Counted from the stretch's first letter, positions 194-50,537 are shown. The stretch is 55,181 nucleotides of DNA from an uncultured Candidatus Saccharibacteria bacterium (GCA_964623335.1 CAZUST010000002.1:12867-68047), one strand, 5' to 3'. Translations and numbers: made by a program. Notes: generated by a model not told the origin, from the sequence alone.

Positions 194-724
194 TTATTGG
201 CTTATTGACCGAAAAATATTTTGCAACTGAGTCACAATCTGCCTCAAAACCAGTTCATTGTCAATAGCTCTTTTAAGCTCCATTTTCAACGACGTCGCCG
301 TGTTTAATTCGCTCGGGAACCAATCAATGTTCGTATTCACGCCGATACCGATAACCGATGATTTCACCTCCTTGGCGATCACATTTTCCGTCAGTATTCC
401 GCTGATCTTTTTCCCGTTCAAATAAACGTCATTGGGCAATTTTACGAACGGCTCGACTTGGCAATCTTCCTTGACCGCCCTAGCCACGCAAAACGCCGCC
501 AGGATCGTCAAAATTTGCAGGTCGTCAACATTCCCTTTGGGCAGCACCACCGAAAAATACAATCCGCCCTTGGGCGAAAACCACGCGTCACCCTTGCGTC
601 CATACCCCCGCCCCTGTTGTTCGGCGGCCACCACCGTCCATGGCTCGGCCCCGGCCGCCGCCAGCTCTTTGGCCTTGGTACTCGTTGAATCCAATTCCCT
701 GAATTTTTTGATCCGAAAATCCAT
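194..724 (-). CDS. birA: Biotin--[acetyl-CoA-carboxylase] ligase (BirA, catalytic domain only, no HTH)
   Basis: 176-aa ORF with the biotin-protein-ligase motif GRGYGRKGDAWFSPKGGLYFS. Lies directly downstream of accB/accC. Confidence 0.85.
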   Translation of the reverse strand: MDFRIKKFRELDSTSTKAKELAAAGAEPWTVVAAEQQGRGYGRKGDAWFSPKGGLYFSVVLPKGNVDDLQILTILAAFCVARAVKEDCQVEPFVKLPNDVYLNGKKISGILTENVIAKEVKSSVIGIGVNTNIDWFPSELNTATSLKMELKRAIDNELVLRQIVTQLQNIFRSISQ

Positions 725-727
725 TTT

Positions 728-1108
728 TTACGCCAACGTTACCAAAATATCGCCTTCCTTGACCTTCTGGTCTTTGGTTACATTTACCTCTTTAACTTTT
801 CCTTCCACCTCGGCCAGTATCTCATTTTCCATTTTCATTGCTGAAAGCGTCAACAATTTTTGTCCCGCCTTGACAATATCTCCGGACCTGACATTTATGT
901 CCGCAATCGTTCCGGCCAGCGCCGCCCGCACTTCCTTGGCATTCAAATCGCGTCGCGGGATTGCAGTTTGAGGCACCGTAGCCACCTCGGTCGCCGCTTT
1001 CTCATCATAAACAAATTCCTTGCCGTTAACATTGATCCTTATCCCGGTTTCCTGATCAAGAATTTCCACTTCAAAATCTTTACCTTGGTTGTTAAAATTG
1101 AATTTCAT
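728..1108 (-). CDS. accB: Biotin carboxyl carrier protein (biotinyl domain)
   Basis: C-terminal biotinyl domain with the SAMKMENEI (AMKM) biotinylation motif. ATG at 1108 preferred; the ORF track extends to a TTG at 1147. Confidence 0.8.
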   Translation of the reverse strand: MKFNFNNQGKDFEVEILDQETGIRINVNGKEFVYDEKAATEVATVPQTAIPRRDLNAKEVRAALAGTIADINVRSGDIVKAGQKLLTLSAMKMENEILAEVEGKVKEVNVTKDQKVKEGDILVTLA

Positions 1109-1148
1109 ATTCTTTGGGAGGCTTTCCGAAATAACTTGCGTTCTCAAT

Positions 1149-2699
1149 CTAACGTTCTTCGGCCATTCCCAGCCGGTCGGCCATCACCCATTTGGAAATG
1201 CGGTCCGAACCCGCGCCGGTTGATTCGGAAACGTTTTTTACCTCTCGGTATATCTTGTAAGCGATATCGGCCACTGTTTTTTCCTCGATATCCTTGTGGC
1301 TGCACACCATCTTCTTCTGCAAGTAAGGTTTAAACATCAGTTCCTGCACGATCCCGCTTTTTTCGATAAAATTGGTAAAAAATGTTCCATTGATAAACTC
1401 TTCTTTTTCCAGCAGAAGCTTAAAGAAAGGAATAGTCGTGGCCACGCCTTCAATATCGGTTTCCGAAAGCGCCCGATCCAGTTTTTTGATTGCCGACTGG
1501 CGATCTTTGCCGTAAGTGATAATCTTTGCCAATAATGAATCAAAGTAAGGGTAAATTTCTTGGCCATCCTGCAAAAAGCTGTGCACGAAAACTCCCTGCC
1601 CCTGCGGCGGAATGTATTTGGTCACCGTTCCCGGCGAAGACGCGAAATTTTTCTGGGGATCTTCGGCATTGACGCGCACTTCAATCGCCCAACCGCTTTG
1701 GTAAATGCTTTCCTGCGTGGAGAATAACCGTTTGCCTTCCGCGATCCGGATTTGCTGTTCCACAATATCCACTCCGGTAACCACTTCGGTCACCGGATGT
1801 TCCACTTGAATGCGCGGATTGACTTCCATAAAATAAAAATTCTTGTCTTTGTCCAATAAAAACTCCACCGTGGCCGCGCCCTCATAACGCAACGACTCGG
1901 CCATTTTCACCGCCCAAGCGCCCATCTTCGCGCGCAATTCCGGGTCTAACGCCGGTGAAGGCGATTCCTCCACCAACTTCTGGAAACGACGCTGGATCGA
2001 ACATTCGCGTTCGCCCAAATGCACCGCTCTTCTTCCATCGCCCAACACCTGAAACTCAATATGTTTAACTTCGGGCAGATATTTTTCCAAAAAGAAATCA
2101 ATATCATCAAATGCTCCCGCCATTTGCCGCTGTACCCCCAAAGACAGCGCCATCATTTCCTCGTAATTCATCTGGCCGTTGACCACGCGAATGCCCATCC
2201 CTCCTCCGCCCCGCTGGGCCTTGATAATGAACGGCGGCTTGATGCGATTGGCCCATTTTATCAAATCTTTTTTGCTTTTTATCGATTGATCGGATGCCGG
2301 CACTGTGGGAATGCCGATTTTTTTGGCAATTTTTTTCGATTCCACTTTGTCTTGCAAAATACGCAAAGTTTTGAAATGCGGCCCGATGAATTTGATCCGG
2401 TTCTTGTCGCACATCAGCGCGAACTGCCAATTTTCCGCCAAAAAACCGTAACCCGGATGAATCGCGTCCGCCTTGGCCTTTTTGGCGATCTCGATAATCT
2501 TTTCCTTATCCAAATATCCTTGAGCGCCGTCTTTCTCAAGGTAATAGAATTCATCGGCAAGCGACGTTTCCAGGAAATTTCTTTCCTGGCCCGGTTGAGG
2601 ACATAACGCCACGGTTTTTATACCCATTTCATGGCAGGTGCGCAGAATTCGCAACGCGATTTCCCCCCGGTTGGCGATCAGTATCTTTTTGATCTCCAT
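1149..2699 (-). CDS. accC: Biotin carboxylase (ATP-grasp) with a roughly 65-aa C-terminal extension
   Basis: N-terminus MEIKKILIANRGEIALRILRTCHEMGIKTVA and glycine-rich loop RGGGGMGIRVV are typical of AccC. At 516 aa it is longer than the usual ~450 aa. Confidence 0.9.
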   Translation of the reverse strand: MEIKKILIANRGEIALRILRTCHEMGIKTVALCPQPGQERNFLETSLADEFYYLEKDGAQGYLDKEKIIEIAKKAKADAIHPGYGFLAENWQFALMCDKNRIKFIGPHFKTLRILQDKVESKKIAKKIGIPTVPASDQSIKSKKDLIKWANRIKPPFIIKAQRGGGGMGIRVVNGQMNYEEMMALSLGVQRQMAGAFDDIDFFLEKYLPEVKHIEFQVLGDGRRAVHLGERECSIQRRFQKLVEESPSPALDPELRAKMGAWAVKMAESLRYEGAATVEFLLDKDKNFYFMEVNPRIQVEHPVTEVVTGVDIVEQQIRIAEGKRLFSTQESIYQSGWAIEVRVNAEDPQKNFASSPGTVTKYIPPQGQGVFVHSFLQDGQEIYPYFDSLLAKIITYGKDRQSAIKKLDRALSETDIEGVATTIPFFKLLLEKEEFINGTFFTNFIEKSGIVQELMFKPYLQKKMVCSHKDIEEKTVADIAYKIYREVKNVSESTGAGSDRISKWVMADRLGMAEER

Positions 2700-2708
2700 T
2701 TGGTAAAA

Positions 2709-3374
2709 TTATTGTAATTTCTTTGCCAAGTCGCGCACATCCCGTTCAATTTGGGCGGTAACGTTCGCACAAAGATTGTGATATTCTTTTGAGTCTTTGT
2801 CAAGACCCTTGGCTTGTTCGTACTCTTTCGGAAAAACCGCCGGCTGGCCAATCGCGATTTTCGCCACCTTTGCGAATTTAGGCCGGCCGTGCGGCGGCAT
2901 CAATTCGTTGGTATCCTTCAATGCGATCGGCAGCACCGGAACTCCGGTCTCGATGTAAAGTTTGCCCACGCCCGGCTTGAAATCCCTCATCACGCCGTTG
3001 TAAGCCCGCCCGCCCTCGGGATAAATAACCACGCAATACCCTCCTTTAAGCATCTTAATCGCGGTCTCAATCGCTTTTTTTTTCGACTCGTCGCTCTTGC
3101 GATTGATCGGAATTATCCCGCCCCATAAATAAATGATATTGCGCCAGAGTTTTTTGAACCCCGTGTATTGGTCCATTTGAGCAATAAATGTGAACTTGCG
3201 CGGCGTGGCGATATAACCGCTCATGAACCAGTCCATATGGCTCAAATGATTGGATGCCAAAATAAAATTCCCTCTTTTAGGCACATTTTCCAGCCCTTTG
3301 ATATCCTTGATCAATAATCGACGTATCGGCCCCGCCAACACCGCCCTCGAAATTATCGAAACCAACTTATTCAT
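2709..3374 (-). CDS. plsC: 1-acyl-sn-glycerol-3-phosphate acyltransferase-like (PlsC family), copy 1
   Basis: HX4D motif NHLSHMDW and YPEGGR block. Start placed at the ATG giving MNKLVSII, parallel to the paralogue start MNKFVSIL; the ORF track extends to 3392. Confidence 0.8.
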   Translation of the reverse strand: MNKLVSIISRAVLAGPIRRLLIKDIKGLENVPKRGNFILASNHLSHMDWFMSGYIATPRKFTFIAQMDQYTGFKKLWRNIIYLWGGIIPINRKSDESKKKAIETAIKMLKGGYCVVIYPEGGRAYNGVMRDFKPGVGKLYIETGVPVLPIALKDTNELMPPHGRPKFAKVAKIAIGQPAVFPKEYEQAKGLDKDSKEYHNLCANVTAQIERDVRDLAKKLQ

Positions 3375-3388
3375 GTGTATATATGACA

Positions 3389-4054
3389 TCAACCGGTGTC
3401 ATTTTTTAACAAATTTCTGACTGCTTCTTCGGTCTTTTTGGCGATAGTTGCGCAAATTTGGCGGTACTCTTCCGAATTTTTATCCAGCTTGGCCGCCGCC
3501 TCCCGCTCCGGCAAAAACTCCATTGGCTTGCCGATTAATATTCTGGCCGTCTTTTTTACTTTCAATTTTCCTCCCGGCGGCATCATTTCATAAGTTCCCT
3601 TGAACGCGGACGGCACTACCGGCGCACCGGTCTCGATATATATCTTGCCCACTCCCGCCCTGAATTCATGCGTCTGGCCGTCGCGCGACCGCATTCCTTC
3701 CGGATAAATCGCCAAACTATAACCGTTTTTAACCATTTCGATCGCCGTGGCCAACGCCGCCTTTTTTGATTCTTTGTTGTTTCTGTCCACCGTAACCACG
3801 CCGCAAACCCAATAAAGCAAATCCCGAAAAAACTTTTTCGTTCCGGTCATTTTGTCCACCTGCGCGATAAAAACATGCCGCCGCGGCGATAAAAGCCCGC
3901 CATCGATGAGCCAATCCAAATGACTCAAATGGTTCGACGCTAGAATAAAGTTTCTCTTGGGGAAATTATTTTCCCCCGCAACCTCCTTCAAAAAATTGAT
4001 TTTTACGTACGGTCTCACCAAAATAAAGGTAAGGATTGAAACAAATTTATTCAT
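3389..4054 (-). CDS. plsC: 1-acyl-sn-glycerol-3-phosphate acyltransferase-like (PlsC family), copy 2
   Basis: HX4D motif NHLSHLDW and IYPEGMRS block. Tandem paralogue of 2709-3374. Confidence 0.8.
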   Translation of the reverse strand: MNKFVSILTFILVRPYVKINFLKEVAGENNFPKRNFILASNHLSHLDWLIDGGLLSPRRHVFIAQVDKMTGTKKFFRDLLYWVCGVVTVDRNNKESKKAALATAIEMVKNGYSLAIYPEGMRSRDGQTHEFRAGVGKIYIETGAPVVPSAFKGTYEMMPPGGKLKVKKTARILIGKPMEFLPEREAAAKLDKNSEEYRQICATIAKKTEEAVRNLLKNDTG

Positions 4055-4072
4055 ATTCTCCGCAATATGGAA

Positions 4073-5014
4073 TTACGAAAACAACTGGCAGCCGTTATCC
4101 ATGATTTTCTTTGCTTCGCCGACGATCTCTTCGATAATGTCTTTGCAAGGCTTCAAATCCCGAATACCCCCGGCGCAGGTGCCGCACAACAACGCCGACA
4201 GATCGGCATCGGCGCCGCCTTTGTTGCCGGCAAAACGCTCCGATTTAATCTCTTCGGGAAAAGGATTTTTGGCCTCAATCTTGCGCACCGATTCCACGAA
4301 TTTGTTCTTGATCATCCGCACCGGATGGCCGGTAAAGCGCGCCACCACCGCGATGTCCTCATCGGTCGCTTTGATAACCGCCTCTTTGTAACTTTCGTGT
4401 ATCTGGCACTCGGTGGCGGCTAAAAACCGCGTGCCGATCTGCACGCCGTCCGCGCCCATGATCAACGCCGCCGCAAAAGTCCGGCCGTCGCAAATACCGC
4501 CCGCGCCAATCACCGGAATGTTTTTGACCGCACTGCTTGTTTGCGGGATTAAGCACATGGTCGTACCTTCACCAATGTGTCCTCCCGATTCAAGCCCCTC
4601 CACCACCACCGCGTCCGCCCCCGCCTGTTCCATCTTTACCGCCAGCCGCACGCACGGCACCACCGGAATCACTTTTACCCCTCCCTGCTTAAAGAAAGGC
4701 ATCACGGGCAAGGGATTTCCCCCTCCCGTGAATACTACCGGCACCTTATTGGCGATGATTATCCTGATTAAGTCCGGCGCCCCGGGATTTTGCAACAAAA
4801 GATTGACCCCGAACGGCTTATCCGTCCGTGCCTTTGTTTTTTTGATCTCCTCCTCCAGCCACGCCGGTGGCGCGAACCCCGAGCCGATGACCCCCAAGCC
4901 ACCGGCGTTGGAAACCGCCGCTACCAGCGTTGATTCCGAAACTCCCGCCATGCCGCCCTGGATTATCGGATATTTGATACCCAGCAATTTGGTGAGTTTA
5001 TTGTTATCAAACAT
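4073..5014 (-). CDS. fabK: Enoyl-[ACP] reductase II / nitronate-monooxygenase family (FabK-like)
   Basis: 313 aa; N-terminal KYPIIQGGMAGVS FMN-barrel signature and SGGHIGE motif, typical of FabK/NMO proteins. Confidence 0.8.
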   Translation of the reverse strand: MFDNNKLTKLLGIKYPIIQGGMAGVSESTLVAAVSNAGGLGVIGSGFAPPAWLEEEIKKTKARTDKPFGVNLLLQNPGAPDLIRIIIANKVPVVFTGGGNPLPVMPFFKQGGVKVIPVVPCVRLAVKMEQAGADAVVVEGLESGGHIGEGTTMCLIPQTSSAVKNIPVIGAGGICDGRTFAAALIMGADGVQIGTRFLAATECQIHESYKEAVIKATDEDIAVVARFTGHPVRMIKNKFVESVRKIEAKNPFPEEIKSERFAGNKGGADADLSALLCGTCAGGIRDLKPCKDIIEEIVGEAKKIMDNGCQLFS

Positions 5015-5055
5015 ATCTCTTCTGTTAGTTTGGTTTAAAAATTTGGTTTTAACGT

Positions 5056-6567
5056 TTAAAGCTGGGCGAGCAACGGCTCTTTGGCCAGAATCGCGTTGGC
5101 TTCATCGACCAGTTCCTTGATCAGATCGGCAACTTTATACATTTTTTTGACGCGCCAGACATTGGCTCCGGCAAAAACCAGGCCATTATCCAAATCCCCC
5201 TTGCGGGCCGCTTCCAATGCTTTAAGAATGCAATAACTTTTGTCGCAAACCGGACCGATACACCCCTTGCACTCTTCCGGCAAAGCTTTAGGGGCAGTCC
5301 CCGCCAATACTTTATCCACGAACGGCGTGCGCACCGCCCGGCCCGGCAACCCGACCGGCGAATGGATTATCACCACATCTTCCTGCTTGGCGTTCAAATG
5401 CGCCTCCTTGAATTTGATATTGGCGTCGCATTCTTCCGTGGAAACAAATCTCGTCGCCATCTGCACTCCGGACGCGCCGTTGCGCAGCATCTCCACGATA
5501 TCCGCGCCGCTGAATATACCTCCGGCCGCGATCAACGGGAGCTTAATTCCCGCCGCCACGACTTCCTTTAAAATATCTATCGTCTTGCGGAACGGCTTGC
5601 CGTGCGGAAACCCCAGATGGCCGCCCGCGTCCGCGCCCTCGATCACGATCGCCGCGGCCCCGGCGGCTTCAGCCTTCTGGGCCACTTTCAACGATGACGC
5701 GATGGAAAATACCGGAATATTCGCCGCCTTGGCCATGTCAAAAGTATCATAGCGGAATCCCGCTCCCTGAACAATTAAGTCCACTTTCTCTTCAATCGCC
5801 GCGTTCAACAACTGGGTGAAGCGCCCGATCACGCCCATGATATTCACACCGATCACCCCCCCGGGTCCGGCAATTTCCCGCGCCTTGCGGATTTCATCCT
5901 TTACTTCTTGGGAATCCAGCATCCCCGAAATCGCCACGATTCCCACACCGCCGTTTTTAGCCACATTGCCGGCCAAATTGTGCAAAGATACGCGCACCGC
6001 CATCCCTCCCTGAATAATCGGATATTTGGCGGTCCATCCGCCCACGCTTAAAGATGGCAGATTGAATAATTTTTTTTTGGTTGCCGTCGCCGTTTGGGCT
6101 TGTTGCCCGTAAAATTTTTCTTTCATTTCGCGTTTATCCATTACCGCCACCGAAAACCGGACTTCGCATTTTAAAACGCCGCCCACCGTGGCCTCTCCCA
6201 CAAAATTGGCAATCTTATCTTTGTAAAAACCAACCAGTTGCAACCGGTATTTAATCCTGTCTCCGGGTAAGATGGGCGACAAAAATTGCGCCCCCCGCAC
6301 CTGGTAAGCCAGCAAATGCTTGTTTTTGTGGTCCGCGCCGATCTTTTGGCGCAACAAAATTGTCCCGGTTTGGGCAAGTCCCTCAACGACCAAAACGCCG
6401 GGCATAATCGGAAAATCCACGAAGTGGCCGGCAAAATAAGGTTCATCCGGAGATGTCTGTTTATACGCGACAATCGTGTCGTTCTCGATCTTTTCCACTT
6501 CATCGACCCATAGGAATGGTTCCTTATAAGGAATTATCTCTCTGATCTGATCTTTGTTATACAACAT
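5056..6567 (-). CDS. Fusion protein: N-terminal FabZ/FabA-type hot-dog dehydratase + C-terminal FabK/NMO-type enoyl reductase
   Basis: N-terminal part has PYKEPFLWVDEV and GHFVDFPIMPGVLVVEGLAQ (FabZ signature). C-terminal part has AKYPIIQGGMAVRVS ... GADAGGHLG (FabK/NMO). ATG at 6567 (MLYNKDQ) preferred; the ORF track extends to 6633. Confidence 0.8.
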   Translation of the reverse strand: MLYNKDQIREIIPYKEPFLWVDEVEKIENDTIVAYKQTSPDEPYFAGHFVDFPIMPGVLVVEGLAQTGTILLRQKIGADHKNKHLLAYQVRGAQFLSPILPGDRIKYRLQLVGFYKDKIANFVGEATVGGVLKCEVRFSVAVMDKREMKEKFYGQQAQTATATKKKLFNLPSLSVGGWTAKYPIIQGGMAVRVSLHNLAGNVAKNGGVGIVAISGMLDSQEVKDEIRKAREIAGPGGVIGVNIMGVIGRFTQLLNAAIEEKVDLIVQGAGFRYDTFDMAKAANIPVFSIASSLKVAQKAEAAGAAAIVIEGADAGGHLGFPHGKPFRKTIDILKEVVAAGIKLPLIAAGGIFSGADIVEMLRNGASGVQMATRFVSTEECDANIKFKEAHLNAKQEDVVIIHSPVGLPGRAVRTPFVDKVLAGTAPKALPEECKGCIGPVCDKSYCILKALEAARKGDLDNGLVFAGANVWRVKKMYKVADLIKELVDEANAILAKEPLLAQL

Positions 6568-6657
6568 GTTTTTTTCTAAAATATTCCCAAAAACGAACGC
6601 CTTCTTATTACCACGAAAAAACCGCGACCGCAACCCAGGCCATGATTAATTATAACA

Positions 6658-7884
6658 TTAAAAACAGTAAACATGGTCGCGCGTAAGCGGCCAATCGTTG
6701 TCTATGCCGCTACTGAAAACCACCTGGTACAGGCGATTGCCGCCATTCTTGAAAGTTGTCGAACTAGCATTCAAATACAAACGCCACATCCTGATAAACC
6801 GTTCCGCCTGTTTCTCGTCGCGCAGACGGTTCACTACCGCCTGGCGGACCGCGGCGATCCTGTTTTCAAAATTACCGGCCCACGTGTCCAGCGTCATCCC
6901 GTAATGGAGCCCCAGATTTTCCACATCCTGCAACACCAATTCGGCTTTAGCCATATTGTCCGAAATCATTCCCAGTGTCGGGATAAAACCGCCCGGGAAA
7001 ATGTATTTTTCAATCCACGGGTCGTTCGGTCCGCCGGTAGTGCCGCCAATTGTCTGCAAAACCCCAACCCCCTTGGGCTTCAATATCTTTTTGATCGATT
7101 TAAAAAACTCCGGGTAATTTTTCTTGCCCACATGTTCGAACATCCCGATTGACACGAATTTATCGAAATTTCCCTTGATTTTGCGATAATCATCCAAAAA
7201 AACCTCCACTTTCCCGCCCAGCCCCTTTTCTTTTATTTTTTCTTTGACGTATGTAAATTGGTTTTTCGACAAGGTATAGCCGGTACAGCGAGCGCCGTAT
7301 TTATTGGCCGCGTAAAACATCATTCCTCCCCAGCCGCACCCGATATCCACCAAAGTTTGCCCCTCTTGCAATCTCAATTTCCGGCAAATGTGGTCATATT
7401 TGTTCTTCTGCGCGGTTTCCAAATCATTGTCAGCCTCTTTAAAATAAGCGCAGGAATAAGTCATCGTCGGATCAAGCCATAACGAATAAAAATCATCGCC
7501 GATATCGTAATGGTAATGGATATTCTTTTTATCAACGCCGATCGTCCGCGGCAACAACTGCTTCAATCTCGCCCCGATCCTTGCCCATAACGGCATTTTC
7601 CCGGCAATCTCCTCCCATTTTCCGCTAAACGCGGCCATCGCCTGCAGATTGCCTTCGATATCAATGTTGCCATCCATATATTCCTCCCCGAATGCCTGCG
7701 TGCCTCCCCCCAGAATCTTTTTGATCGTTCCTTCGGAACGGATGGTTACCGTAAATTTGGCCGTTCCCTTCCCGTAACACGATTCTTTCCCATCCCAAAA
7801 GCGGACCGCGAACGGAGTTTCGGGATACGCCTGGCTTAATTTGTCCAAAACCGCGCCGATGATTTTCTCCATGGTAGCGGGCAT
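6658..7884 (-). CDS. cfa: Cyclopropane-fatty-acyl-phospholipid synthase family SAM-dependent methyltransferase
   Basis: 408 aa; SAM motif LVDIGCGWGGMMFYAA and overall CFA/mycolic-acid-methyltransferase-like sequence (YSCAYF, FEHVG). Confidence 0.85.
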   Translation of the reverse strand: MPATMEKIIGAVLDKLSQAYPETPFAVRFWDGKESCYGKGTAKFTVTIRSEGTIKKILGGGTQAFGEEYMDGNIDIEGNLQAMAAFSGKWEEIAGKMPLWARIGARLKQLLPRTIGVDKKNIHYHYDIGDDFYSLWLDPTMTYSCAYFKEADNDLETAQKNKYDHICRKLRLQEGQTLVDIGCGWGGMMFYAANKYGARCTGYTLSKNQFTYVKEKIKEKGLGGKVEVFLDDYRKIKGNFDKFVSIGMFEHVGKKNYPEFFKSIKKILKPKGVGVLQTIGGTTGGPNDPWIEKYIFPGGFIPTLGMISDNMAKAELVLQDVENLGLHYGMTLDTWAGNFENRIAAVRQAVVNRLRDEKQAERFIRMWRLYLNASSTTFKNGGNRLYQVVFSSGIDNDWPLTRDHVYCF

Positions 7885-7904
7885 GCGGCGAACGGCGCCG
7901 GCGG

Positions 7905-8654
7905 CTAGATCATCAAGCCGCCATCGATGTTCACCACCGTACCGGTAATGAAACTTGCTTCGGATGAGGCTAAAAACGCGATCGTTGATGCCACTTCTTC
8001 GGGTTTGCCGAACCGTCCCATCGCCGTCGCTTTCTTGATCAGCATTTTCATCTCTTCGGGAATCGCTTCGGCCATTTTGGTCTCAATGAATCCGGGCGCC
8101 ACCGCGTTGACCCGCACATTGAATCTTCCCACTTCCTTGGCCAAGGCTTTGGTAAATCCGATAATCCCGGCTTTGGCCGCGGCATAATTGGTCTGGCCAA
8201 AATTACCTTCCTGCCCCACCACTGAAGCCAAACTGACGATTGAGCCCTGCGCCGCGATCAGTAAAGGCAAAGCAATTTTTGAACAGTTAAAAATACTGGT
8301 CAAATCGATATCGATCACCCGTTGCCACTCTTCCACGGTCATTTTGGCCAGCGTCCTGTCCTTGGCGATTCCGGCATTGTTTATCAAGACGTCCAACCGG
8401 CCGAATTCCTTTTGGATATTCTGCACCATCGCTTCCACTTCGGCGAATTTGGACACATCGGCGCAAAAATATTTGGCATCCGGCGCCCCGGCTTTTTTTA
8501 TGTCATCAACCGCCAGTTTCAAATTTTCCTCCTGCGGCGCGATATCGTTTAACGCAATCTTGGCCCCTAAGGACGCGAACTTGGTGGCGATTGCCTTGCC
8601 GATCCCCTGCGACCCTCCCGTCACCAGTACTATCCTGCCATTAAATGTGTACAT
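7905..8654 (-). CDS. fabG: 3-oxoacyl-[ACP] reductase (SDR family, FabG-like)
   Basis: VTGGSQGIGKAIA cofactor motif, LINNAGI, catalytic YAAAKAG (YxxxK). 249 aa. Confidence 0.9.
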   Translation of the reverse strand: MYTFNGRIVLVTGGSQGIGKAIATKFASLGAKIALNDIAPQEENLKLAVDDIKKAGAPDAKYFCADVSKFAEVEAMVQNIQKEFGRLDVLINNAGIAKDRTLAKMTVEEWQRVIDIDLTSIFNCSKIALPLLIAAQGSIVSLASVVGQEGNFGQTNYAAAKAGIIGFTKALAKEVGRFNVRVNAVAPGFIETKMAEAIPEEMKMLIKKATAMGRFGKPEEVASTIAFLASSEASFITGTVVNIDGGLMI

Positions 8655-8733
8655 TTAATAAATCCAAATATCAAATTTCAAACGTCGAACAAAATCTAAA
8701 TCCGATGGCAAATTTTAAAAAAGTATTTTTTAT

Positions 8734-8790
8734 CATTTGTCATTCGAACTTTGACGTTTGTTTGCCATTTGTCATTCGAACTTTGACGTT
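8734..8790. repeat. Tandem 25-bp direct repeat upstream of fabG (candidate operator)
   Basis: catttgtcattcgaactttgacgtt is identical at 8734-8758 and 8766-8790 (period 32). Lies 80-136 nt upstream of the fabG ATG (8654) on the minus strand. Confidence 0.85.
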
Positions 8791-8890
8791 ATTTGCATCA
8801 CACGATGAATCCGCGCCTAATGGGAATCATTGAAATCGTTTGATTCCTTAATTTTTGCGCTTTTGGCGCGGTTTCCAAATGTGATTTCAA

Positions 8891-9083
8891 TAGACCTACT
8901 GCGTAAATATTTACGCGACGAAATTTTCAGATTTCGCGCGAGGGAAATAAGGAAGGTCTGCTCGCAGTCTCGTTTCGCAAAAACGAGGGAGGCATACTTG
9001 ACTTAAAGTCTGCCGACGACTGACGAATTTTCCGTAGCCGAAATATGGAAATTGCAGTAGGAAATATTTACGCAGTAGGTCTA
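8891..9083. repeat. 193-bp element bounded by perfect 22-bp terminal inverted repeats (MITE-like or structured RNA)
   Basis: tagacctactgcgtaaatattt (8891-8912) is the exact reverse complement of 9062-9083. Internal hairpins at 8915-8939 and 8969-8987. No ORF inside. Confidence 0.8.
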
Positions 9084-9098
9084 ATATTTAAAATATAT

Positions 9099-10130
9099 TT
9101 AAAATATCTCGGCTTGGTATTGCACTTCCTTGATCGTTCTTCCGACAATCGGTATCATCGCCATGTCAATATCCTTTAAAACTTCGGGCAGTTTGAACGC
9201 CTTGGTAACCTCATTGAACACCCGGTCCACATTGCGCGGCGCGCGGCCGGCCAAAACCAGCCCCGTAAACGCCACGAGTTTGTTTGATCTCTGGATAAAC
9301 TCCGCTTCGCCGATTACCACCAGCTTGCCAATTACCGGCTCCAGCTTGGCCGCGATCTCCGCGTCCGACGACAAATATTTCTGCCCCAGATAACATTCCT
9401 TTTTTAGCGCCTTTAAAATATTGCCGGTCGCGTTGGCCGCCCCCATTTTTTCCATTGCCAGATCAATCACCAAATCCGCGTCAAGCGCCGGTTTGGAAAC
9501 TTCAAATTGCCCGATGGTTTCAAACTCGCCCGTAGCAAGATCAAGCGGCATGATCCCGAATTTCATACAAGCCTCAACCAGTCCCGCCTTCATTGCCGCG
9601 GCTCCGGCCGGTATTTCGTCAAAACTTTGCGTCCCTACCGTAATATTTTCCTTCTTTACCCCGCAATCCAGCAACAACTGAAGCAACGCCGCTAAAAATT
9701 CCGGCGAAGTATTATCGCGGAAATATGAATGGGTCGGTTTGGTGATCGTCGGCAGCACCGCCACTTTTGAATCCGCGCCGATATTAATACCGCCGATCAG
9801 GCTCAACGCCTTCTCAATCGCTTCTCGGGGTTCATACTTGACCCGCCAGATCGCCACCGCGTTCTTATTGGAGTCGGTTTCGACCGTAAATTCATCCCCG
9901 GCTTTATATTCCTTTTCCGATTTATATCCCCACATATTGCCCGCCTCATCTTCGAGTAGTAGGACATTATAGGGAACATCGGGATGAAAAAGCGTCGGGA
10001 TCGCCACTTTGACCGCGCCGCGCACTGTAACTTTTTTCCCGCCAATCTTATCCAAGGGCATCAGGCAATACGGACATTCGGCAATCGGATATTGCCACCG
10101 CCGTTTGCATTTTTGGCATTCATAAAACAT
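9099..10130 (-). CDS. Fusion of a DUF35-like zinc-ribbon/OB-fold domain with a DUF362 domain
   Basis: N-terminus CQKC..CPYC zinc ribbon followed by an OB-like segment (PYNVLLLEDEAGN), as in thiolase-associated DUF35 proteins. C-terminus fits the DUF362 pattern by eye (VAVLPTITKP..TSPEFLAALLQLLLDCGVKKENITVG ... LVVIGEAEF). Confidence 0.6.
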   Translation of the reverse strand: MFYECQKCKRRWQYPIAECPYCLMPLDKIGGKKVTVRGAVKVAIPTLFHPDVPYNVLLLEDEAGNMWGYKSEKEYKAGDEFTVETDSNKNAVAIWRVKYEPREAIEKALSLIGGINIGADSKVAVLPTITKPTHSYFRDNTSPEFLAALLQLLLDCGVKKENITVGTQSFDEIPAGAAAMKAGLVEACMKFGIMPLDLATGEFETIGQFEVSKPALDADLVIDLAMEKMGAANATGNILKALKKECYLGQKYLSSDAEIAAKLEPVIGKLVVIGEAEFIQRSNKLVAFTGLVLAGRAPRNVDRVFNEVTKAFKLPEVLKDIDMAMIPIVGRTIKEVQYQAEIF

Positions 10131-10311
10131 AATCTTGTGGTAAAATAAAATGGTTAAACTTCAAGCATCAAGCGCCAAATCACAAAGTAAATTCTAATAT
10201 TCGAAACTTAAATTTTAAATATCAAGATTTAAATATTATTTGGAACTTGCCCGCCGAAAACGGACGCGTCCCCGGCGCAGAATTTGGTTCTTGTAATTTA
10301 TTGTTTAGTAT

Positions 10312-10809
10312 ATGCCAAAAACCTATATTTTGCCAGAGAAAAACCGCCTGCAAATGCAAAAAGTCTGGGGCAAAGCGCTTTTCGGCTCGGAAAATGAAAT
10401 AAAACGAAAATACGCGCAAACTCTGGCCTGGAAAAAATACAAAACCGTGATCACCGTGGGTGATTATTGTTCGTATCACCTGCAATCCGATATTAAAATT
10501 TTTGACAAAAAAGTCCAGCGCCGCGACTTTAGTCAAAAGCACGCCTGCTCCATGAACGTTAAAAACCCGGCCGGCACCATCCAAAAAGAAAGCTGGAATG
10601 CCATGCGCGAAGCGATCAAAAAAACCGCCAATCTTTGCATTGACGGCGAGGAAGACCTGTTGGTGATCCCGGCGGTAATTCTGGCAAAACCCAAAACCCT
10701 GGTGGTCTACGGCTTTCCCAACAAGGGCATCTGCCTTTTGGAAGCCAACCTGAAAAACAAAACCATCTTTCGCCTCGTCCTTAAAAAATACTTCACTTCC
10801 GCTAATTGA
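10312..10809 (+). CDS. DUF359-family protein (archaeal GTP-dependent dephospho-CoA kinase-like)
   Basis: 165 aa with ITVGD and DGEEDLLVIPAVILA..VVYGFPNKG motifs characteristic of the DUF359/TK1697 family. The antisense ORF 10222-10830 was rejected. Confidence 0.65.
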   Translation: MPKTYILPEKNRLQMQKVWGKALFGSENEIKRKYAQTLAWKKYKTVITVGDYCSYHLQSDIKIFDKKVQRRDFSQKHACSMNVKNPAGTIQKESWNAMREAIKKTANLCIDGEEDLLVIPAVILAKPKTLVVYGFPNKGICLLEANLKNKTIFRLVLKKYFTSAN

Positions 10810-10899
10810 CGGAAAAAATAAATCTGGCAAACAGCTTTAATCGTCCTTTCAAAAATTAACGCGCCCGGAACAAATTACATAGGCGAAATCTATATAATT

Positions 10900-12042
10900 T
10901 TAATCTTTTTTGAATATATGCACCGTCGCGCTGCCGCCGGCACCGCCGATGTTATGCGTTAAACCGATTTTGGCGTTTTTAACTTGCCTTTCCCCGCAAT
11001 TACCGCGTAACTGATTGGTAATTTCATAGATCTGCGCCAAACCCGTTGCCGAGATCGGATGACCCTTGGCCTTCAAACCTCCTGACGGATTTATCGGCAT
11101 TTCACCGTCCAAATTGATTTTACCCGAACGGATCAACTCGCCCCCCTTACCCGGATCGGCAAATCCCAAATCTTCGTATGACAACAGCTCCACCGAAGTG
11201 AATGCGTCGTGAATCTCGGCCACATTGATATCTTTGGGCAATAACCCCGCCATCGTAAACGCTTTTTCCGCCGCCAACTGCGTCGCTTTGAAATGCGTCT
11301 TATCTTTCCTTTCGAAAGTCAGAATATAATCCGTGGCAAAACCCGAGCCAACCGTCTCAATCTCCGCTTCTTCCTTGGAAACGATTACTGCCGCGCCGCC
11401 GTTCACCGACAGCGAACAATCCATCAGCGTCAACGGTTCGGCCACCATTGGTGAACTTTTGATTTTTTCCATTTCCACCGGCCGCTTGTAATAATAAGCT
11501 TTGGGATTTAACGCCGCATTTTGGTGATTTTTGAACGCGATCAATTCCAAATCTTCATGCTTGCCGCCGTATTTGGCGCAGTACTGCTGAAAAACCAGCG
11601 CGTTCTGCACCGGAAAAAGCAAACCTTCCGGCTGTTCCACCACTCGCTCCGCCGCTGATAATATCCAGTCGGTAACCACCTCGGCGCGGCTCTCCACCAG
11701 TTTTTCGCCGGTCAAAACTAAAATATTTTTAAACTCGCTGTCGCGCAAAAGCCGCAACGCCGCCCAAAACGCCACGCCGCCGCCGCCGCAAACCGACGGC
11801 GTCTCAATAATGGGGACGTTGGTCTTGAATAACCCTGACAACAGCGATACCTTATGAGTCTGGTGCTCCCCCCCGGCCGCCGAAGATACGCCGGAAAAAA
11901 CAATTGCGTCGATCCCGGAAAAATCCATCTTGGCATCCTTAAGCGCGTCCAGCGCCGCCTCATAAGCGTAACCCCACCACGGTTTTTGGGTATAATCGAA
12001 ACGAGTCATTCCCACGCCCTTGATATACATTTTTGGTTCCAT
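10900..12042 (-). CDS. Thiolase-superfamily protein, archaeal/SCP-x-like acetyl-CoA acetyltransferase type
   Basis: Catalytic-Cys region ETPSVCGGGGVAF and C-terminal NPSGGLKAKGHPISATGL ... HNIGGAG blocks. A second in-frame ATG at 12030 (MYIKGVG) is an alternative start. Confidence 0.8.
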   Translation of the reverse strand: MEPKMYIKGVGMTRFDYTQKPWWGYAYEAALDALKDAKMDFSGIDAIVFSGVSSAAGGEHQTHKVSLLSGLFKTNVPIIETPSVCGGGGVAFWAALRLLRDSEFKNILVLTGEKLVESRAEVVTDWILSAAERVVEQPEGLLFPVQNALVFQQYCAKYGGKHEDLELIAFKNHQNAALNPKAYYYKRPVEMEKIKSSPMVAEPLTLMDCSLSVNGGAAVIVSKEEAEIETVGSGFATDYILTFERKDKTHFKATQLAAEKAFTMAGLLPKDINVAEIHDAFTSVELLSYEDLGFADPGKGGELIRSGKINLDGEMPINPSGGLKAKGHPISATGLAQIYEITNQLRGNCGERQVKNAKIGLTHNIGGAGGSATVHIFKKD

Positions 12043-12477
12043 AAATATATTTTAATACAAAAAAATCAAAATCTGGTAGCGCCCGAATATTCTATATCAA
12101 GCAAACACCAAAAGTAAAGGAAAATTATGGCGGCTCCCGGGAAGCCGCCCTCTCATCCGGCAACGCGCGGCGCGATTGCTATTATATTGAAACGAATATC
12201 ACTTATTTACGCCGCGAAAATCCGCATCCCCGCCCATCGCGTACGCACTGCGCAAGTATCCGGCGGTAAATTATCGGCGGTTTTCAAATAAAATTTCCTT
12301 CCTCCGTAACCTCCGCGTAAAGAGCGTTCACGCCACCCGTAGCCAATGCGCGGCCATGCCGCACTTCTGCCAATTATATTAGCGATATCTTAAATGATTG
12401 CAAATGATTGTAAGACGCACACACGAGGTTGCGTTCATCCGTTTTTTATGGTACCGTTTAACCGTTGATCTTCATTG

Positions 12478-12550
12478 GCCCTCGTAGTTTAATGGATAAA
12501 ATGCGAGGTTGCGGACCTTGCGACTACAGGTCCGATTCCTGTCGAGGGCA
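12478..12550 (+). tRNA. tRNA-Arg (anticodon GCG), manual fold, atypical T-loop
   Basis: Cloverleaf: acceptor GCCCTCG/CGAGGGC, anticodon stem CGAGG/CCTTG, loop TTGCGGA, T-arm ACAGG-TCCGATT-CCTGT (C instead of U at position 55), discriminator A. No encoded CCA. Confidence 0.65.
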
Positions 12551-12596
12551 CAACAATCAGAAAGTCGGGGGGAACCCCGACTTTCTGATTGTTGTG
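12549..12596 (+). repeat. Perfect 22-bp inverted repeat (hairpin, GGAA loop) abutting the tRNA-Arg 3' end
   Basis: cacaacaatcagaaagtcgggg (12549-12570) / ccccgactttctgattgttgtg (12575-12596). No clear U-tract after it. Confidence 0.85.
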
Positions 12597-12699
12597 AATC
12601 TTTATGACCCTGCTCGAACCTACTTTACCCAAAATTGCTCTTGGGACAGGCTAACTATTATAGAGGCAAGTTATGTCCCCGCGGCCGCGCCGCCGGCCC

Positions 12700-12936
12700 G
12701 GAATTGAGGCATTTACCATACATTCCCGCCTGCCAGCAAGCAAATAGTTGCAAAGTGGGAGGAAAATAAACTACCGCGCGGCCAAGGCGGCGCGGTAGTT
12801 TGATTCCCCGCTAGGTATTTTGGCGGGTAAATAAACTGCCGCGCGGCCAAGGCGGCGCGGTATTCCCGCGGAAAAGTTTGATTCCCTGCCATTCATTCCC
12901 GAAGCAGAGTCCCGAGGTGTTTTGGCGGGTAAATAA
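12700..12936. repeat. Family-A mosaic palindromic repeat locus (two core hairpins, reverse orientation)
   Basis: aaataaactaccgcgcggccaaggcggcgcggtagtttgattccccgc (12766-12813), a second core at 12830-12890, and the attcattcccgaagcagagtcccgaggtgttttggcgggtaaat module. Confidence 0.85.
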
Positions 12937-13223
12937 AATAAAAGGCCGCTTGAAAATCCAAAAGCGGATTAAATGATATTTTTATGAGTTTGACTGTTGT
13001 TGCCGGACGGAAAAAAGAAGCCTAGCGAAATCGAAAACGACGAATTGATGTATTCGCTCGAAAAGAAGACTGTGCGGTCGGTGCCGATTATTGCTCGATC
13101 CGCGGCTAAATTCAGCATTAAATTAATCGCTCAAAAAGCGATTTTTTGGTATTATAACAAAACATCGCTGACGCAATTGCGATTTTTAATCGAATTTATG
13201 TTTTTATAGGGTAAATTTTTACA

Positions 13224-14813: not shown

Positions 14814-14857
14814 AATCATAGGCCAAACGCAAAAATATTCTCTAAGAAGGTTTTTAC

Positions 14858-14968
14858 GAATAAACTATCGCGCCGCCCAAGGCGCCCCGGTAGTTTGATT
14901 CCCCGCCAGGTATTTTGGCGGGTAAATAAACTACCGCGCGCCCAAGGCGCCCCGGTATTCCTGAGGTA
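14858..14968. repeat. Family-A mosaic palindromic repeat locus (two core hairpins, reverse orientation)
   Basis: taaactatcgcgccgcccaaggcgccccggtagtttgattccccgcc followed by aggtattttggcgggtaaataaactaccgcgcgcccaaggcgccccggtattcc. Confidence 0.85.
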
Positions 14969-15187
14969 AAGATGCGAGCATGGTATGAATATTATTTGTG
15001 AAAACCTCCTTATTATTAAAAAATATGATCAAGCTGGCACTGATTGATGAGAAAAAGTTGACGCTTTAACCCGCAGGAATATGCGCGCACCGGAGGTTTT
15101 AAAAAAACGGACATTGCTTGACGGTTTTATTTTTCCGTGTGCCGGACGATGTCAAGTGCTTGTTGGAAAGGAGTATAGCTACATAAA

Positions 15188-28937: not shown

Positions 28938-28943
28938 TCCTTT

Positions 28944-29114
28944 AAAATAACTGCCGCGCGCTCAAGGCGGCATAGTAGTTTTATTCTCCACCATTCATCC
29001 CCGAGGCGAAGCCCCGCGGTATTCCGACGGAAAAGTTTGTTAATCCTCCGCTTCGCGATCGCCGCGCTGCGGGCGGGCATTCATCCCCGATGCTAAGCCT
29101 CAGGGTATTCCGCC
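28944..29114. repeat. Family-A mosaic repeat locus including a 98-nt composite module
   Basis: Degenerate core aaaataactgccgcgcgctcaaggcggcatagtagtttt, then the cattcatccccgaggcgaagccccgcggtattccg module. The 98-nt segment 29017-29114 is about 89 percent identical by eye to 40034-40131. Confidence 0.85.
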
Positions 29115-29126
29115 AGATTAATAAAA

Positions 29127-39945: not shown

Positions 39946-40131
39946 TAAATAAACTGTCCGGGGACTAGCTCGAATCGATAAGCCCCGAGGTGTTCCGGCG
40001 GGGAAATCAAACTACCGTGCGCCCAAGGCGGCGCGGTATTTCCGCGGAAAAGTTTGTTAATCCTTCGCTTCGCGATCGCCGCGCTGCGGGCGGATATTTA
40101 TCCCCGATGTGAAACCTCGGGGTATTCTGCC
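39946..40131. repeat. Family-A mosaic repeat locus including the 98-nt composite module
   Basis: ccggcggggaaatcaaactaccgtgcgcccaaggcggcgcggta core, then 40034-40131, homologous to 29017-29114. Confidence 0.85.
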
Positions 40132-40146
40132 AAATCAATAACCAAA

Positions 40147-43507: not shown

Positions 43508-44644
43508 TTAATACTTCTTGATCGGCATTAAAATATAAATAAAATCCGCGCCTTCAGCGGGTTTTAACACCCCGGGACCGTCATCGCTGGAAAACTCCAT
43601 AAGGCACTTGTCGTCTTTAATTGAATTAAGCCCGTCCGCCAAAAACTTATAATTAAAAGTAATGGTTATGTCTTCTCCGGTATTTTTTTCCAATTTAAGT
43701 TCGCTTTCATAATCACCCAACTCCGCCGACCGGCTCATAACCATCAATACCCCTTCTTTTTGCAATAATTTGATTACTATTTCGTTTCCTTTCCCCGCGA
43801 ATAATCCCGCCGATTTTAAATGGTTTAACAACTCTTTCTTTGAAAAAGTTATACTGGCCGCGTAGGTTGTGGGAATTATCGCCTGATAATCCGGGAATTC
43901 ACCATCGATCAACCGGCTTACGAATTGTATTCGCGGTTGCGCCGCGTCATCTTCCGGATCAACTTCGATTGTCACCTGGTTTACCGAAAAAAATATATTG
44001 ACATTTGATTGCTTGTCGCCAAAAATCGAGATTATCTCTTTAACTGCGCGCGCCGGCAAAATTATCGGGTATTCTTTGGATAACGCCTTACCCTTGGGCA
44101 TTTTGATTGTCTTTTCACCCAAACGAAAACTGTCCGTCGCCACTACCTTTATCTCGTTGTCCGCAAACAACGCATAAACCCCGGTGATTTCCGGCTTGAC
44201 TGAAGATGAACTGGTAAAATTAACCACTTGCGTTAAAGCCTGGCAAAATATTTCCGCCTTGATTGTTAGGAATTCCCCCTCGGTATTTATCGGCAACGCT
44301 GGAAATTCGTCCGCGCTCAACCCTTTTAGCGTGGATTTTCGCTTATTTCCGGATATCACCACTGAAACAGTGTCCGATTCAATATTGATTGATCCGGCCG
44401 GGAATGATCCTATCAATCCTGATAGGGTTTGAGCTGGCAGCGCGATCCCCCCATCCTCTTCGGTTTTTGACAATAATTTCCAAGATATTCCCGTTTCCAG
44501 ATTGGTTGCGACCGCGGTTAGTGAATTTTTTTCTGCTTTTAAAAGGATATTGCTCAGAATTGGCAAGGTAACATCCCTTCCCGTGATCTTTTCGACCTGG
44601 GATATCGCCTGGTAAAGTTTTTCCTGTAATATCTTGGTTTTCAT
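43508..44644 (-). CDS. dnaN: DNA polymerase III beta sliding clamp
   Basis: 378 aa, three-domain clamp-like sequence, immediately downstream of dnaA. Confidence 0.9.
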   Translation of the reverse strand: MKTKILQEKLYQAISQVEKITGRDVTLPILSNILLKAEKNSLTAVATNLETGISWKLLSKTEEDGGIALPAQTLSGLIGSFPAGSINIESDTVSVVISGNKRKSTLKGLSADEFPALPINTEGEFLTIKAEIFCQALTQVVNFTSSSSVKPEITGVYALFADNEIKVVATDSFRLGEKTIKMPKGKALSKEYPIILPARAVKEIISIFGDKQSNVNIFFSVNQVTIEVDPEDDAAQPRIQFVSRLIDGEFPDYQAIIPTTYAASITFSKKELLNHLKSAGLFAGKGNEIVIKLLQKEGVLMVMSRSAELGDYESELKLEKNTGEDITITFNYKFLADGLNSIKDDKCLMEFSSDDGPGVLKPAEGADFIYILMPIKKY

Positions 44645-44895
44645 TTGATTGTTGTTATATGTATTAATATTTATTTTTATTGATTAATTATAATTAGTAT
44701 TAATAATATACATTGTGGAAAACTGTCGTTTTAATCTTAATTTCCCTTTGAATTATTTGTGGATTACTGTTGGTCTCGTGTGTTTATTGATTGTTTGTAT
44801 CTTTGTTGCGGTATTTCTTTGTTTGAATTGTTCACCACCCTTCCTGTTGTGCATCCTCCGGTTTATTCATGGTTGTATCCACATTTTTTCAACAA
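44645..44895. promoter_or_regulatory. AT-rich dnaA-dnaN spacer with DnaA-box-like sites
   Basis: TGTGGAAAA 44714-44722, TGTGGATTA 44758-44766, GTATCCACA 44875-44883, each one mismatch from TTATCCACA/TGTGGATAA. No ORF of note. Confidence 0.55.
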
Positions 44896-50407: not shown

Positions 50408-50537
50408 AATAAAAATATATAAATATGAAAATAAAAATTAAATCAAGGTAAAAACAAAGCATATTTCTTGGTGCGCTGCGTATTCTTTGTGTTTTCCCTT
50501 TGCGCTTGGCGCTTTTGGGTTTTTGCCCCCCTTTTCT

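Follow-up and report, generated by a model that had tools for sequence, protein, structure and literature searches.

The coenzyme A (CoA)-dependent pathway of Sulfolobus acidocaldarius has been reconstituted, and it makes acyl-CoA from acetyl-CoA without malonyl-CoA (Schmerling et al. 2024, bioRxiv 10.1101/2024.07.05.601840). In this archaeon, a thiolase (KT, Saci_1121) with its DUF35 partner (Saci_1120), a FabG-like reductase (ACR, Saci_1104) and a MaoC dehydratase (MaoC-HCD, Saci_1085) form a complex, and an MDR-type (medium-chain dehydrogenase/reductase) enoyl-CoA reductase (ECR, Saci_1115) completes the cycle (10.1101/2024.07.05.601840). Here, we describe a lipid-gene cluster at positions 194-12042 of a 55,181-nucleotide stretch (the window, at its full length) from an uncultured Candidatus Saccharibacteria bacterium (GCA_964623335.1 CAZUST010000002.1:12867-68047), together with related loci. 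We give about an even chance to the reading that this conserved Paceibacteria (Parcubacteria/Minisyncoccia) operon builds or extends acyl chains on CoA without acyl carrier protein (ACP), and so feeds glycerolipid assembly.

The original prediction, made from the sequence without database searches, gave a list of genes with their strands and order, all of which were confirmed by a listing of open reading frames (ORFs) and by profile searches. The features are as follows.

10900-12042, minus strand: thiolase (KT), candidate condensing enzyme; Pfam Thiolase_C_1, 159 bits
10312-10809, plus strand: DUF359 protein; Pfam DUF359, 90.6 bits
9099-10130, minus strand: DUF35-fold/DUF362 fusion; DUF362 Pfam match, and fold from AlphaFold2 and Foldseek
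8655-9098, no strand: ORF-free intergenic gap upstream of fabG, candidate promoter/operator; 445 nt, tandem repeats
7905-8654, minus strand: FabG-type 3-ketoacyl reductase, an SDR (short-chain dehydrogenase/reductase); TIGR01830, 282 bits (cut-off 298)
6658-7884, minus strand: Cfa, cyclopropane-fatty-acyl-phospholipid synthase; Pfam CMAS, 314 bits, plus DUF7884
5056-6633 (ORF; 5056-6567 from a start at M23), minus strand: fusion of a FabZ hot-dog domain and a FabX-like NMO domain; FabA-like and NMO domains
4073-5014, minus strand: FabK-type enoyl reductase, using flavin mononucleotide (FMN); TIGR03151, 360 bits (cut-off 453)
3389-4054, minus strand: PlsC-family acyltransferase, paralogue a; Pfam Acyltransferase, 89 bits
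2709-3392, minus strand: PlsC-family acyltransferase, paralogue b; Pfam Acyltransferase, 93 bits
1149-2699, minus strand: biotin carboxylase (ATP-grasp); Biotin_carb_N, CPSase_L_D2 and Biotin_carb_C; PRK08654, 549 bits
728-1147, minus strand: biotin carboxyl carrier protein (BCCP); Biotin_lipoyl, 61.5 bits, AMKM motif
194-724, minus strand: BirA-type biotin-protein ligase, catalytic domain only; TIGR00121, 143 bits (cut-off 83)
1-193, no strand: palindromic repeat of ~88 nt in two copies at the contig end; repeat families D1, D3 and D7

As in Sulfolobus, a thiolase of the DUF35-partnered class lies beside a DUF35-fold protein, the ketoreductase is a FabG-like SDR, no ACP was seen in the window or its relatives, and CoA thioesters are presumed. 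The dehydratase is of the FabZ rather than the MaoC type, and the enoyl reductase is of the FabK rather than the MDR type. Moreover, the DUF35 fold shares its polypeptide with a DUF362/LarA-like domain, acyltransferases are co-encoded and the organism is a bacterium with ester lipids, unlike in the archaeal case. The operon also includes an entire biotin carboxylase system together with a ligase for it, whereas malonyl-CoA is unused in the archaeal pathway.

The likeness to type II fatty-acid synthesis (FAS) of bacteria lies in FabG, FabZ and FabK, which score near the equivalog models, in the biotin-dependent carboxylase, in PlsC/PlsY and in the operon arrangement. In contrast to that system, neither the window nor the 51 related loci gave any ACP, AcpS, FabD or ketoacyl-ACP synthase (KAS), the condensing enzyme's position is taken by a thiolase, and the carboxyltransferase is a single fused PccB/MmdA-like protein instead of AccA plus AccD. 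A third relative is the thiolase/hydroxymethylglutaryl-CoA (HMG-CoA) synthase/DUF35 complex of Methanothermococcus thermolithotrophicus (6ESQ/6ET9), which shares the thiolase class (178 bits to 6ESQ_A) and whose chains E-G in 6ESQ match the DUF35-fold protein structurally. Here, however, no HMG-CoA synthase was found in or near the operon, and the neighbours are fatty-acid and not mevalonate enzymes; a mevalonate role of the thiolase/DUF35 pair was rejected, as HMG-CoA synthase occurs in none of the loci.

Conservation of the operon and the search for ACP-dependent genes

A scan of one genome per GTDB species gave 51 Paceibacteria/Minisyncoccales/Nealsonbacteria loci (881 kb in total), including three complete chromosomes (CP179887, CP179889 and OZ246399). 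The order that recurs across these loci is KT-(DUF359)-DUF35fold/DUF362-FabG-(Cfa)-FabZ/FabX-like-FabK-PlsC(1-2)-biotin carboxylase-BCCP-BirA-carboxyltransferase-(PlsY 1-2). In 11 loci, ten core genes are co-directional and nearly contiguous, and the thiolase and DUF35-like genes are adjacent in every locus that is long enough to judge. In the window, the spacing from fabG to birA ranges from a 4-nt overlap up to 41 nt on first start codons (90 nt and 40 nt with later ones), in agreement with the tight packing, mostly under 45 nt, that had been noticed beforehand.

The ratio of non-synonymous to synonymous substitution (dN/dS) was calculated for 11 genes against the nearest species (L084), with synonymous sites near saturation, and lay between 0.035 and 0.175 for all of them (0.04 for the thiolase). 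These values indicate strong purifying selection and led us to reject pseudogene decay. As far as such sequence comparisons go, the locus is a conserved functional unit.

Searches with phmmer and hidden Markov models (HMMs) against the six-frame translation of the window found no ACP, AcpS, FabD, FabH/F, AccA/D, PlsX or PlsY in the 55 kb, so that the predicted absence of acpP, acpS, fabD, KAS, plsX and plsY from the window stood. Likewise, ACP, FabD, KAS (FabH/F), AcpS and PlsX were found in 0 of the 51 loci. An HMM built from three ACPs, run on ORFs of at least 45 aa in the loci and of at least 40 aa in the window, produced no E-value better than 2.6, and a small ACP gene sought in the 445-nt gap and in 12043-13223 was absent from both. 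FabG, FabZ and the enoyl reductase of bacterial type II FAS are present, with scores just under the equivalog cut-offs. The full CoA-based elongation cycle proposed in the original prediction keeps one candidate for each step, in an order retained across the 51 loci, and has to be amended in that one of the two "FabK" domains is FabX-like and a carboxylase is present.

The same gene set underlies the partial FAS described by Probst et al. (2020, PMC7242380) and Nakajima et al. (2025, PMC12281837). Probst et al. report, for Nealsonbacteria, FAS-II homologues with PlsY and PlsC and without ACP synthase, FabD and PlsX, and raise an ACP-independent route without concluding on it (PMC7242380). In Minisyncoccus archaeiphilus, a parasite of archaea that is in culture and whose genome is closed, Nakajima et al. 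list AccC, FabK, FabG and a FabA-like protein, their role being called unclear and no complete fatty-acid pathway being reported (PMC12281837). The supplement to that paper has the entire operon in this organism (MNSC_05910-06000), with a thiolase, a DUF362 protein (COG1545 in eggNOG), a hot-dog/NMO fusion and a carboxyltransferase among its genes. Within the available parts of PMC7242380 and PMC12281837, we found no description of the thiolase/DUF35-fold pair as a condensing module, of the FabX-like or DUF362/LarA-like fusions, of the carboxyltransferase within one operon, or of the conserved gene order. A literature search returned nothing on the complete Nealsonbacteria genomes CK12Hparc1 and ER8H12parc2.

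Condensing module, carboxylase and modifying enzymes

Against NCBIfam, the thiolase matched PRK06064 at 327 bits and the M. thermolithotrophicus model NF053570 at 276 bits, both under cut-off. Its best PDB matches were 7YVY, 4YZO and 6ESQ, with BbsB also among the best, and it retains the nucleophile cysteine (SVCGGGG) and the histidine of the GHP motif. Judged from its sequence, the thiolase is of the archaeal/SCP2 class that partners DUF35 proteins. A search of 1.84 billion cluster representatives returned a Paceibacteria clade of 3 representatives at 49-54% identity, beyond which identity was at most 42%. The nearest named outgroups, at 35-42% identity, are archaea and bacteria mixed (Njordarchaeia/Korarchaeota, Thermoplasmata and Negativicutes). 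Given that identity falls so low, that the neighbours are mixed and that no donor can be named, a recent transfer from archaea was rejected. The term "archaeal-style", as first applied to this thiolase, therefore holds for the enzyme class, as indicated by the models and PDB matches, and not for a traceable recent transfer from a close archaeal donor.

Among the fetched loci, the closest thiolase outside the Paceibacteria (322 bits) is found in L057:9956-18931, from a Woesearchaeota metagenome-assembled genome (MAG; JACPCD010000005.1). It adjoins a FabG with an N-terminal oligonucleotide/oligosaccharide-binding (OB)-fold extension that is DUF35-like, and a neighbouring nonulosonic-acid sugar cluster (NeuB, DegT, a PseB-like protein and a CTP-transferase) contains FabZ. 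This set may supply 3-hydroxyacyl groups for sugar N-acylation in a DPANN archaeon.

The gene next to the thiolase had been proposed to encode a DUF35/DUF362 fusion. Its DUF362 part was upheld by a Pfam match in 43 of 43 homologues, and its DUF35 part is visible as a fold: the Pfam DUF35 families (PF01796/PF12172) matched 0 of the 43, even at E<=0.1, and the AlphaFold2 model (pLDDT, the predicted local distance difference test, 91.8) forms a zinc ribbon plus an OB fold over residues ~1-100. With this N-terminal part, Foldseek retrieved ChsH2-DUF35, BbsA, PhlB, MucB and the M. thermolithotrophicus DUF35 protein (E 5e-4 to 2e-2), with a probability of 1.0 to five different DUF35 proteins; the proteins matched are all partners of thiolase-fold enzymes. 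The domain carries a CxxC...CxxC motif at residues 5-22, of which C5, C8 and C19 are invariant, and both eggNOG and JGI give COG1545 to some homologues of the fusion. The C-terminal DUF362 domain led Foldseek to LarA-family racemases (E 1e-6, TM ~0.4), a similarity of fold alone; DUF362 is an uncharacterised family separate from LarA in the same Pfam clan (CL0471), and no lar genes were seen in the loci. From the predicted model, the fusion protein is presumed to be the thiolase partner or scaffold.

The DUF359 gene lies between the thiolase and DUF35-like genes on the opposite strand in 19 of the 51 loci. Its product scores 71 bits against NCBIfam NF041125 (cut-off 300) and belongs, as a distant member, to the family of archaeal GTP-dependent dephospho-CoA kinases. 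Dephospho-CoA kinase carries out the final step of CoA synthesis. A bacterium would thus have an archaeal-type step of CoA synthesis, tied to a pathway that is presumed to be CoA-based.

The genes for the biotin-dependent enzyme are only partly contained in the window. The biotin carboxylase has a C-terminal extension of ~65 aa, the JGI gene call for BCCP begins at 1108, and the birA ligase has no repressor domain. An exact look-up of the BirA protein led to L085 and L086, two further JGI contigs from the same population, which match the window at 99.4% identity over 2.7 kb. In both, a Carboxyl_trans gene of 515 aa lies 239 nt past birA, beyond one copy of the repeat. Consequently, the statement that accA and accD are missing holds for the 55-kb window and not for the organism, which encodes a carboxyltransferase. 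In L002/L084, the nearest relative at species level, this protein matches PF01039 at 581 bits (L002) and is of the MmdA/PccB-like fused class; a carboxyltransferase follows birA in 42 of the 51 loci. Window bases 1-193 had been considered as its N-terminus, which was rejected, as these bases are repeat sequence.

A complete biotin-dependent acyl-CoA carboxylase, consisting of biotin carboxylase, BCCP and carboxyltransferase, is therefore part of the cluster. The ATP-grasp biotin carboxylase indicates that the system works as a carboxylase and not as a decarboxylase; a Na+-pumping decarboxylase was rejected on this ground, and no membrane beta subunit was seen. Since the carboxyltransferase stands beside birA, the pathway almost certainly involves malonyl-CoA or another carboxy-acyl-CoA. 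A carboxylase with its own ligase in the operon argues for a carboxylated extender unit, unlike in the archaeal system. That malonyl-CoA is a substrate of the thiolase itself is purely inferential.

The Ser/Tyr/Lys triad of FabG is present in 48 of 48 cluster orthologues. At the positions of Escherichia coli R129 and R172, which we take to be ACP-docking residues, these orthologues have Gln (40 of 48) and Phe/Leu (44 of 48), respectively; the role of the two arginines was reportedly addressed by Zhang et al. in 2003.

The following gene but one had been called a FabZ-FabK fusion, a name that does not hold for its second half. We placed its start at M23 from the alignment consensus of 20 homologues, which gives a 503-aa protein. 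In all 20, the catalytic H70/E84 pair of the FabZ domain is invariant, as are H339, the catalytic residue that aligns with FabX H182, and C455, C458, C463 and C468 (CxxCx4Cx4C). In a PDB sequence search, the NMO domain scored 171.6 bits with Helicobacter pylori FabX (7E1Q) versus 129 bits with the best FabK (7L00); FabX also tops the Foldseek list for the AlphaFold model, only marginally ahead of FabK. Three of the four cysteines align with the FabX [4Fe-4S] ligands C304, C308 and C320, and the fourth falls elsewhere, in a loop modelled with low confidence. The NMO domain is thus better described as FabX-like, closer to FabX than to FabK, and likely carries a [4Fe-4S] site.

In FabX, an Fe-S subdomain takes the place of the NAD(P)H site of FabK; acyl-ACP is dehydrogenated, and the enoyl intermediates are isomerised from trans-2 to cis-3 on the way to unsaturated fatty acids (PMC8626469). 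The H. pylori enzyme (7E1Q; Zhou et al. 2021, PMC8626469) is the best match to the C-terminal domain of the fusion in sequence and fold and shares with it the NMO/TIM-barrel fold and the catalytic His; the C-terminal subdomain of the fusion has four invariant Cys, three of them at ligand positions of FabX. In contrast to that enzyme, the NMO domain is fused to FabZ, the cysteine spacing is CxxCx4Cx4C with no equivalent of the ligand C300, and the ACP-contact residues R164 and T130 are not kept, being replaced by an invariant Gly and a Tyr. Moreover, H. pylori FabX needs O2 as electron acceptor, whereas the organisms studied here are presumed anaerobes. The loss of ACP-contact residues in both FabG and the FabX-like domain fits an ACP-free pathway, as a weak indication.

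The FabX-like domain may make unsaturated chains rather than reduce enoyl thioesters. Its position beside Cfa suggests that unsaturated chains are made, because Cfa needs them. In the anaerobe Fusobacterium nucleatum, overexpression of a FabX homologue partly rescues FabK inhibition (PMC11091888), which leaves an isomerase/dehydrogenase and a reductase role both possible for the fusion. The fusion is 66-90% identical across related species; in a minority of loci, FabZ and FabK occur but the FabX-like domain does not. Cfa, which scores 322 bits against NCBIfam PRK11705 (cut-off 400), was found in only 6 of the 51 loci. The stand-alone gene at 4073-5014, for its part, is by sequence a genuine FabK, as first proposed (308 bits to Clostridioides difficile FabK, 7L00, versus 68 bits to FabX).

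Directly after the carboxyltransferase in L082 (17103-17300), a gene encodes a 65-aa single-cluster ferredoxin (CxxCxxCxxxCP ... CP), and one stands in the same position in L013, L014, L015, L019, L020 and L083, all of one subclade. In those organisms, the Fe-S flavoprotein domain of the FabX-like type may have this ferredoxin as its redox partner; as a general partner it was rejected, being confined to one subclade.

The two PlsC paralogues carry the HX4D motifs NHLSHLD (a) and NHLSHMD (b), and many relatives have a single copy. PlsY was found in 14 of the 51 loci, in several of them as a tandem or fused duplicate downstream of the operon (L033:9532-10801 and L048:16068-17378). Downstream of the carboxyltransferase lie a 110-aa ORF, an MGDG_synth-type glycosyltransferase and a hydrolase of the haloacid dehalogenase (HAD) type (L085:2812-6619 and L086:2763-6569 of the same population, and L084:11330-15122 of the closest species), a linkage which suggests that a diacylglycerol-to-glycolipid step is tied to the operon.

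Surroundings of the operon in the window

The fabG gene is separated from the DUF362 gene by the 445-nt gap, which contains two tandem 32-nt direct repeats at 8726-8789 (repeat family D8; minus-strand reading ACGTCAAAGTTCGAATGACAAATG...). These repeats are situated ~70-130 nt upstream of fabG with no regulator gene nearby, and may be an operator for the fabG-to-birA operon. A promoter and terminator scan was uninformative, as terminator-like sites were no commoner than in shuffled controls.

A GC-rich interspersed palindromic repeat of ~88 nt, resembling repetitive extragenic palindromes or miniature inverted-repeat transposable elements (REP/MITE-like), occurs at 1-190, 12757-12940, 14857-14971, 28943-29124, 39955-40141, 52073-52161 and 54997-55181. 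Every copy in the window is intergenic; both window ends are tandem copies, and the five further sites are internal. The assembly stops 190 nt past birA because the contig evidently broke at this repeat.

The rest of the window is housekeeping in character, with dnaA-dnaN, ftsH, infB, a murE-like gene, pilB, PBP1, tyrS, eight tRNAs, and TraG-like and PrgI-like genes; Pfam annotation of its remaining ORFs gave no additional lipid genes. Since dnaN and dnaA lie on the minus strand (43508-46257) and the GC skew flips sign at ~44-46 kb, the chromosomal replication origin is probably inside the window. At 48593-51970, genes for a PrgI-family protein and for a P-loop ATPase resembling TraG stand amid unannotated ORFs, and the region may be the remnant or core of a type IV secretion/conjugation module.

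Proposed pathway, competing readings and significance

We infer that CoA rather than ACP is the carrier and that ACP is absent genome-wide. In the pathway that we propose, malonyl-CoA would come from the BirA-matured system of biotin carboxylase, BCCP and fused carboxyltransferase, and the thiolase, held by the DUF35-fold/DUF362 protein, would join an extender unit to acyl-CoA. The condensation could use malonyl-CoA decarboxylatively, which would explain the place of the carboxylase in the operon, or could condense acetyl-CoA as in Sulfolobus. The ketoacyl thioester would then be reduced by FabG and dehydrated by the FabZ domain, and the enoyl thioester would be reduced by FabK. The FabX-like domain would either isomerise trans-2 to cis-3 enoyl thioesters, giving unsaturated chains that Cfa then cyclopropanates, or act as a ferredoxin-linked enoyl reductase. 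The PlsC paralogues would acylate glycerol-3-phosphate or lysolipids; in relatives, PlsY, the HAD phosphatase and the glycosyltransferase of the monogalactosyldiacylglycerol (MGDG)-synthase type would carry the route on. CoA would be supplied by the DUF359 kinase. The hosts of several carriers are presumably archaea with ether lipids, unable to supply fatty acids.

Several observations weigh against this pathway. The searches covered the window and the 51 loci, and ACP, AcpS, FabD or KAS may lie elsewhere in the genomes; acpP has been reported in some Patescibacteria MAGs (one study), so that a phylum-wide absence of ACP cannot be assumed. All four cycle enzymes other than the thiolase come from ACP-dependent bacterial families. 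The DUF35 identity is by predicted fold, with modest TM-scores (0.42-0.50, normalised to the target), and the argument from FabG docking residues, which uses positions of E. coli FabG, is weak evidence. PlsY needs acyl-phosphate, yet PlsX was seen in 0 of the 51 loci. Finally, known thiolase/DUF35 systems do not use malonyl-CoA (10.1101/2024.07.05.601840), and under a strictly archaeal model the operon carboxylase has no explanation.

A bolder version posits a hybrid, ACP-free synthase. In it, malonyl-CoA would come from the carboxylase, a thiolase held by the DUF35-fold/LarA-like protein would replace KAS and ACP, and the FabZ-FabX-like fusion would introduce cis double bonds without O2, such that Paceibacteria would make their own membrane fatty acids. 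We regard this version as tentative and, in its entirety, rather unlikely.

Unlikely too, in our view, is that the operon serves salvage or remodelling, in which host fatty acids or lysolipids would be elongated, saturated or desaturated, cyclopropanated and re-esterified via PlsC. Cells of the candidate phyla radiation (CPR) are described as rich in lysolipids and thought to scavenge lipids (PMC7242380), and M. archaeiphilus has a long-chain acyl-CoA synthetase (PMC12281837). The PlsC paralogues and Cfa act on preformed lipids, and PlsY without PlsX suggests that exogenous fatty acids enter. However, a complete four-step cycle together with a dedicated carboxylase that has a biotin ligase of its own exceeds what remodelling needs, and several carriers parasitise archaea, whose ether lipids give no fatty acids. 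It should be noted that salvage overlaps chemically with elongation on CoA, and the two are not exclusive.

We hold it to be improbable that these genes belong to an ordinary ACP-dependent type II FAS with acpP, acpS, fabD and KAS elsewhere in the genome, the thiolase/DUF35 pair being an unrelated neighbour. The scores of FabG, FabZ and FabK near ACP-dependent equivalog models, the acpP of some MAGs and the scope of the gene search would all accommodate it. Against this, the thiolase and DUF35-like genes are co-directional with fabG and abut or overlap it in many loci, as a single operon; ACP, FabD and KAS are found in none of the 51 loci; and such genes are reported neither in the Nealsonbacteria surveys (PMC7242380) nor for the closed M. 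archaeiphilus genome (PMC12281837). Least probable is a role outside the membrane, as an electron sink by CoA-based reverse beta-oxidation or as a supply of short 3-hydroxyacyl groups for polymers or glycan N-acylation: a thiolase and a reductase are also the core of butyrate and polyhydroxybutyrate pathways, and the closest non-Paceibacteria thiolase lies by an OB-fold-FabG fusion near a nonulosonic-acid cluster with FabZ, but linkage ties the operon to a diacylglycerol-type glycosyltransferase as well as to PlsC, PlsY and Cfa, ATP-consuming carboxylation is ill suited to a fermentative sink, and no polyhydroxyalkanoate synthase or butyrate-forming genes were seen in the loci.

CoA-based synthesis or elongation of acyl chains, the reading we favour, bears on an open question, the origin of the membranes of CPR/Patescibacteria, which are routinely called unable to make membrane lipids. 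The ACP-independent idea is not new: it was raised for Nealsonbacteria in 2020 (PMC7242380), and work on Sulfolobus demonstrated the thiolase/DUF35 chemistry in 2024. Here, a full elongation cycle, a carboxylase and acyltransferases stand in one operon with no carrier protein. The operon also occurs in M. archaeiphilus, the only cultured member of the group, which makes the CPR membrane question directly testable because this bacterium is a parasite of an archaeon, and the ether lipids of that host cannot serve as a source of fatty acids. If the favoured reading is true, fatty-acid synthesis on CoA with a thiolase/DUF35 pair would be a feature of bacteria as well as of archaea, and two undescribed fusion enzymes, FabZ-FabX-like and DUF35-fold-DUF362, would be added. 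Should the hybrid synthase also prove true, it would be the first thiolase/DUF35 condensing system to use malonyl-CoA, and these CPR bacteria could no longer be regarded as incapable of lipid synthesis.

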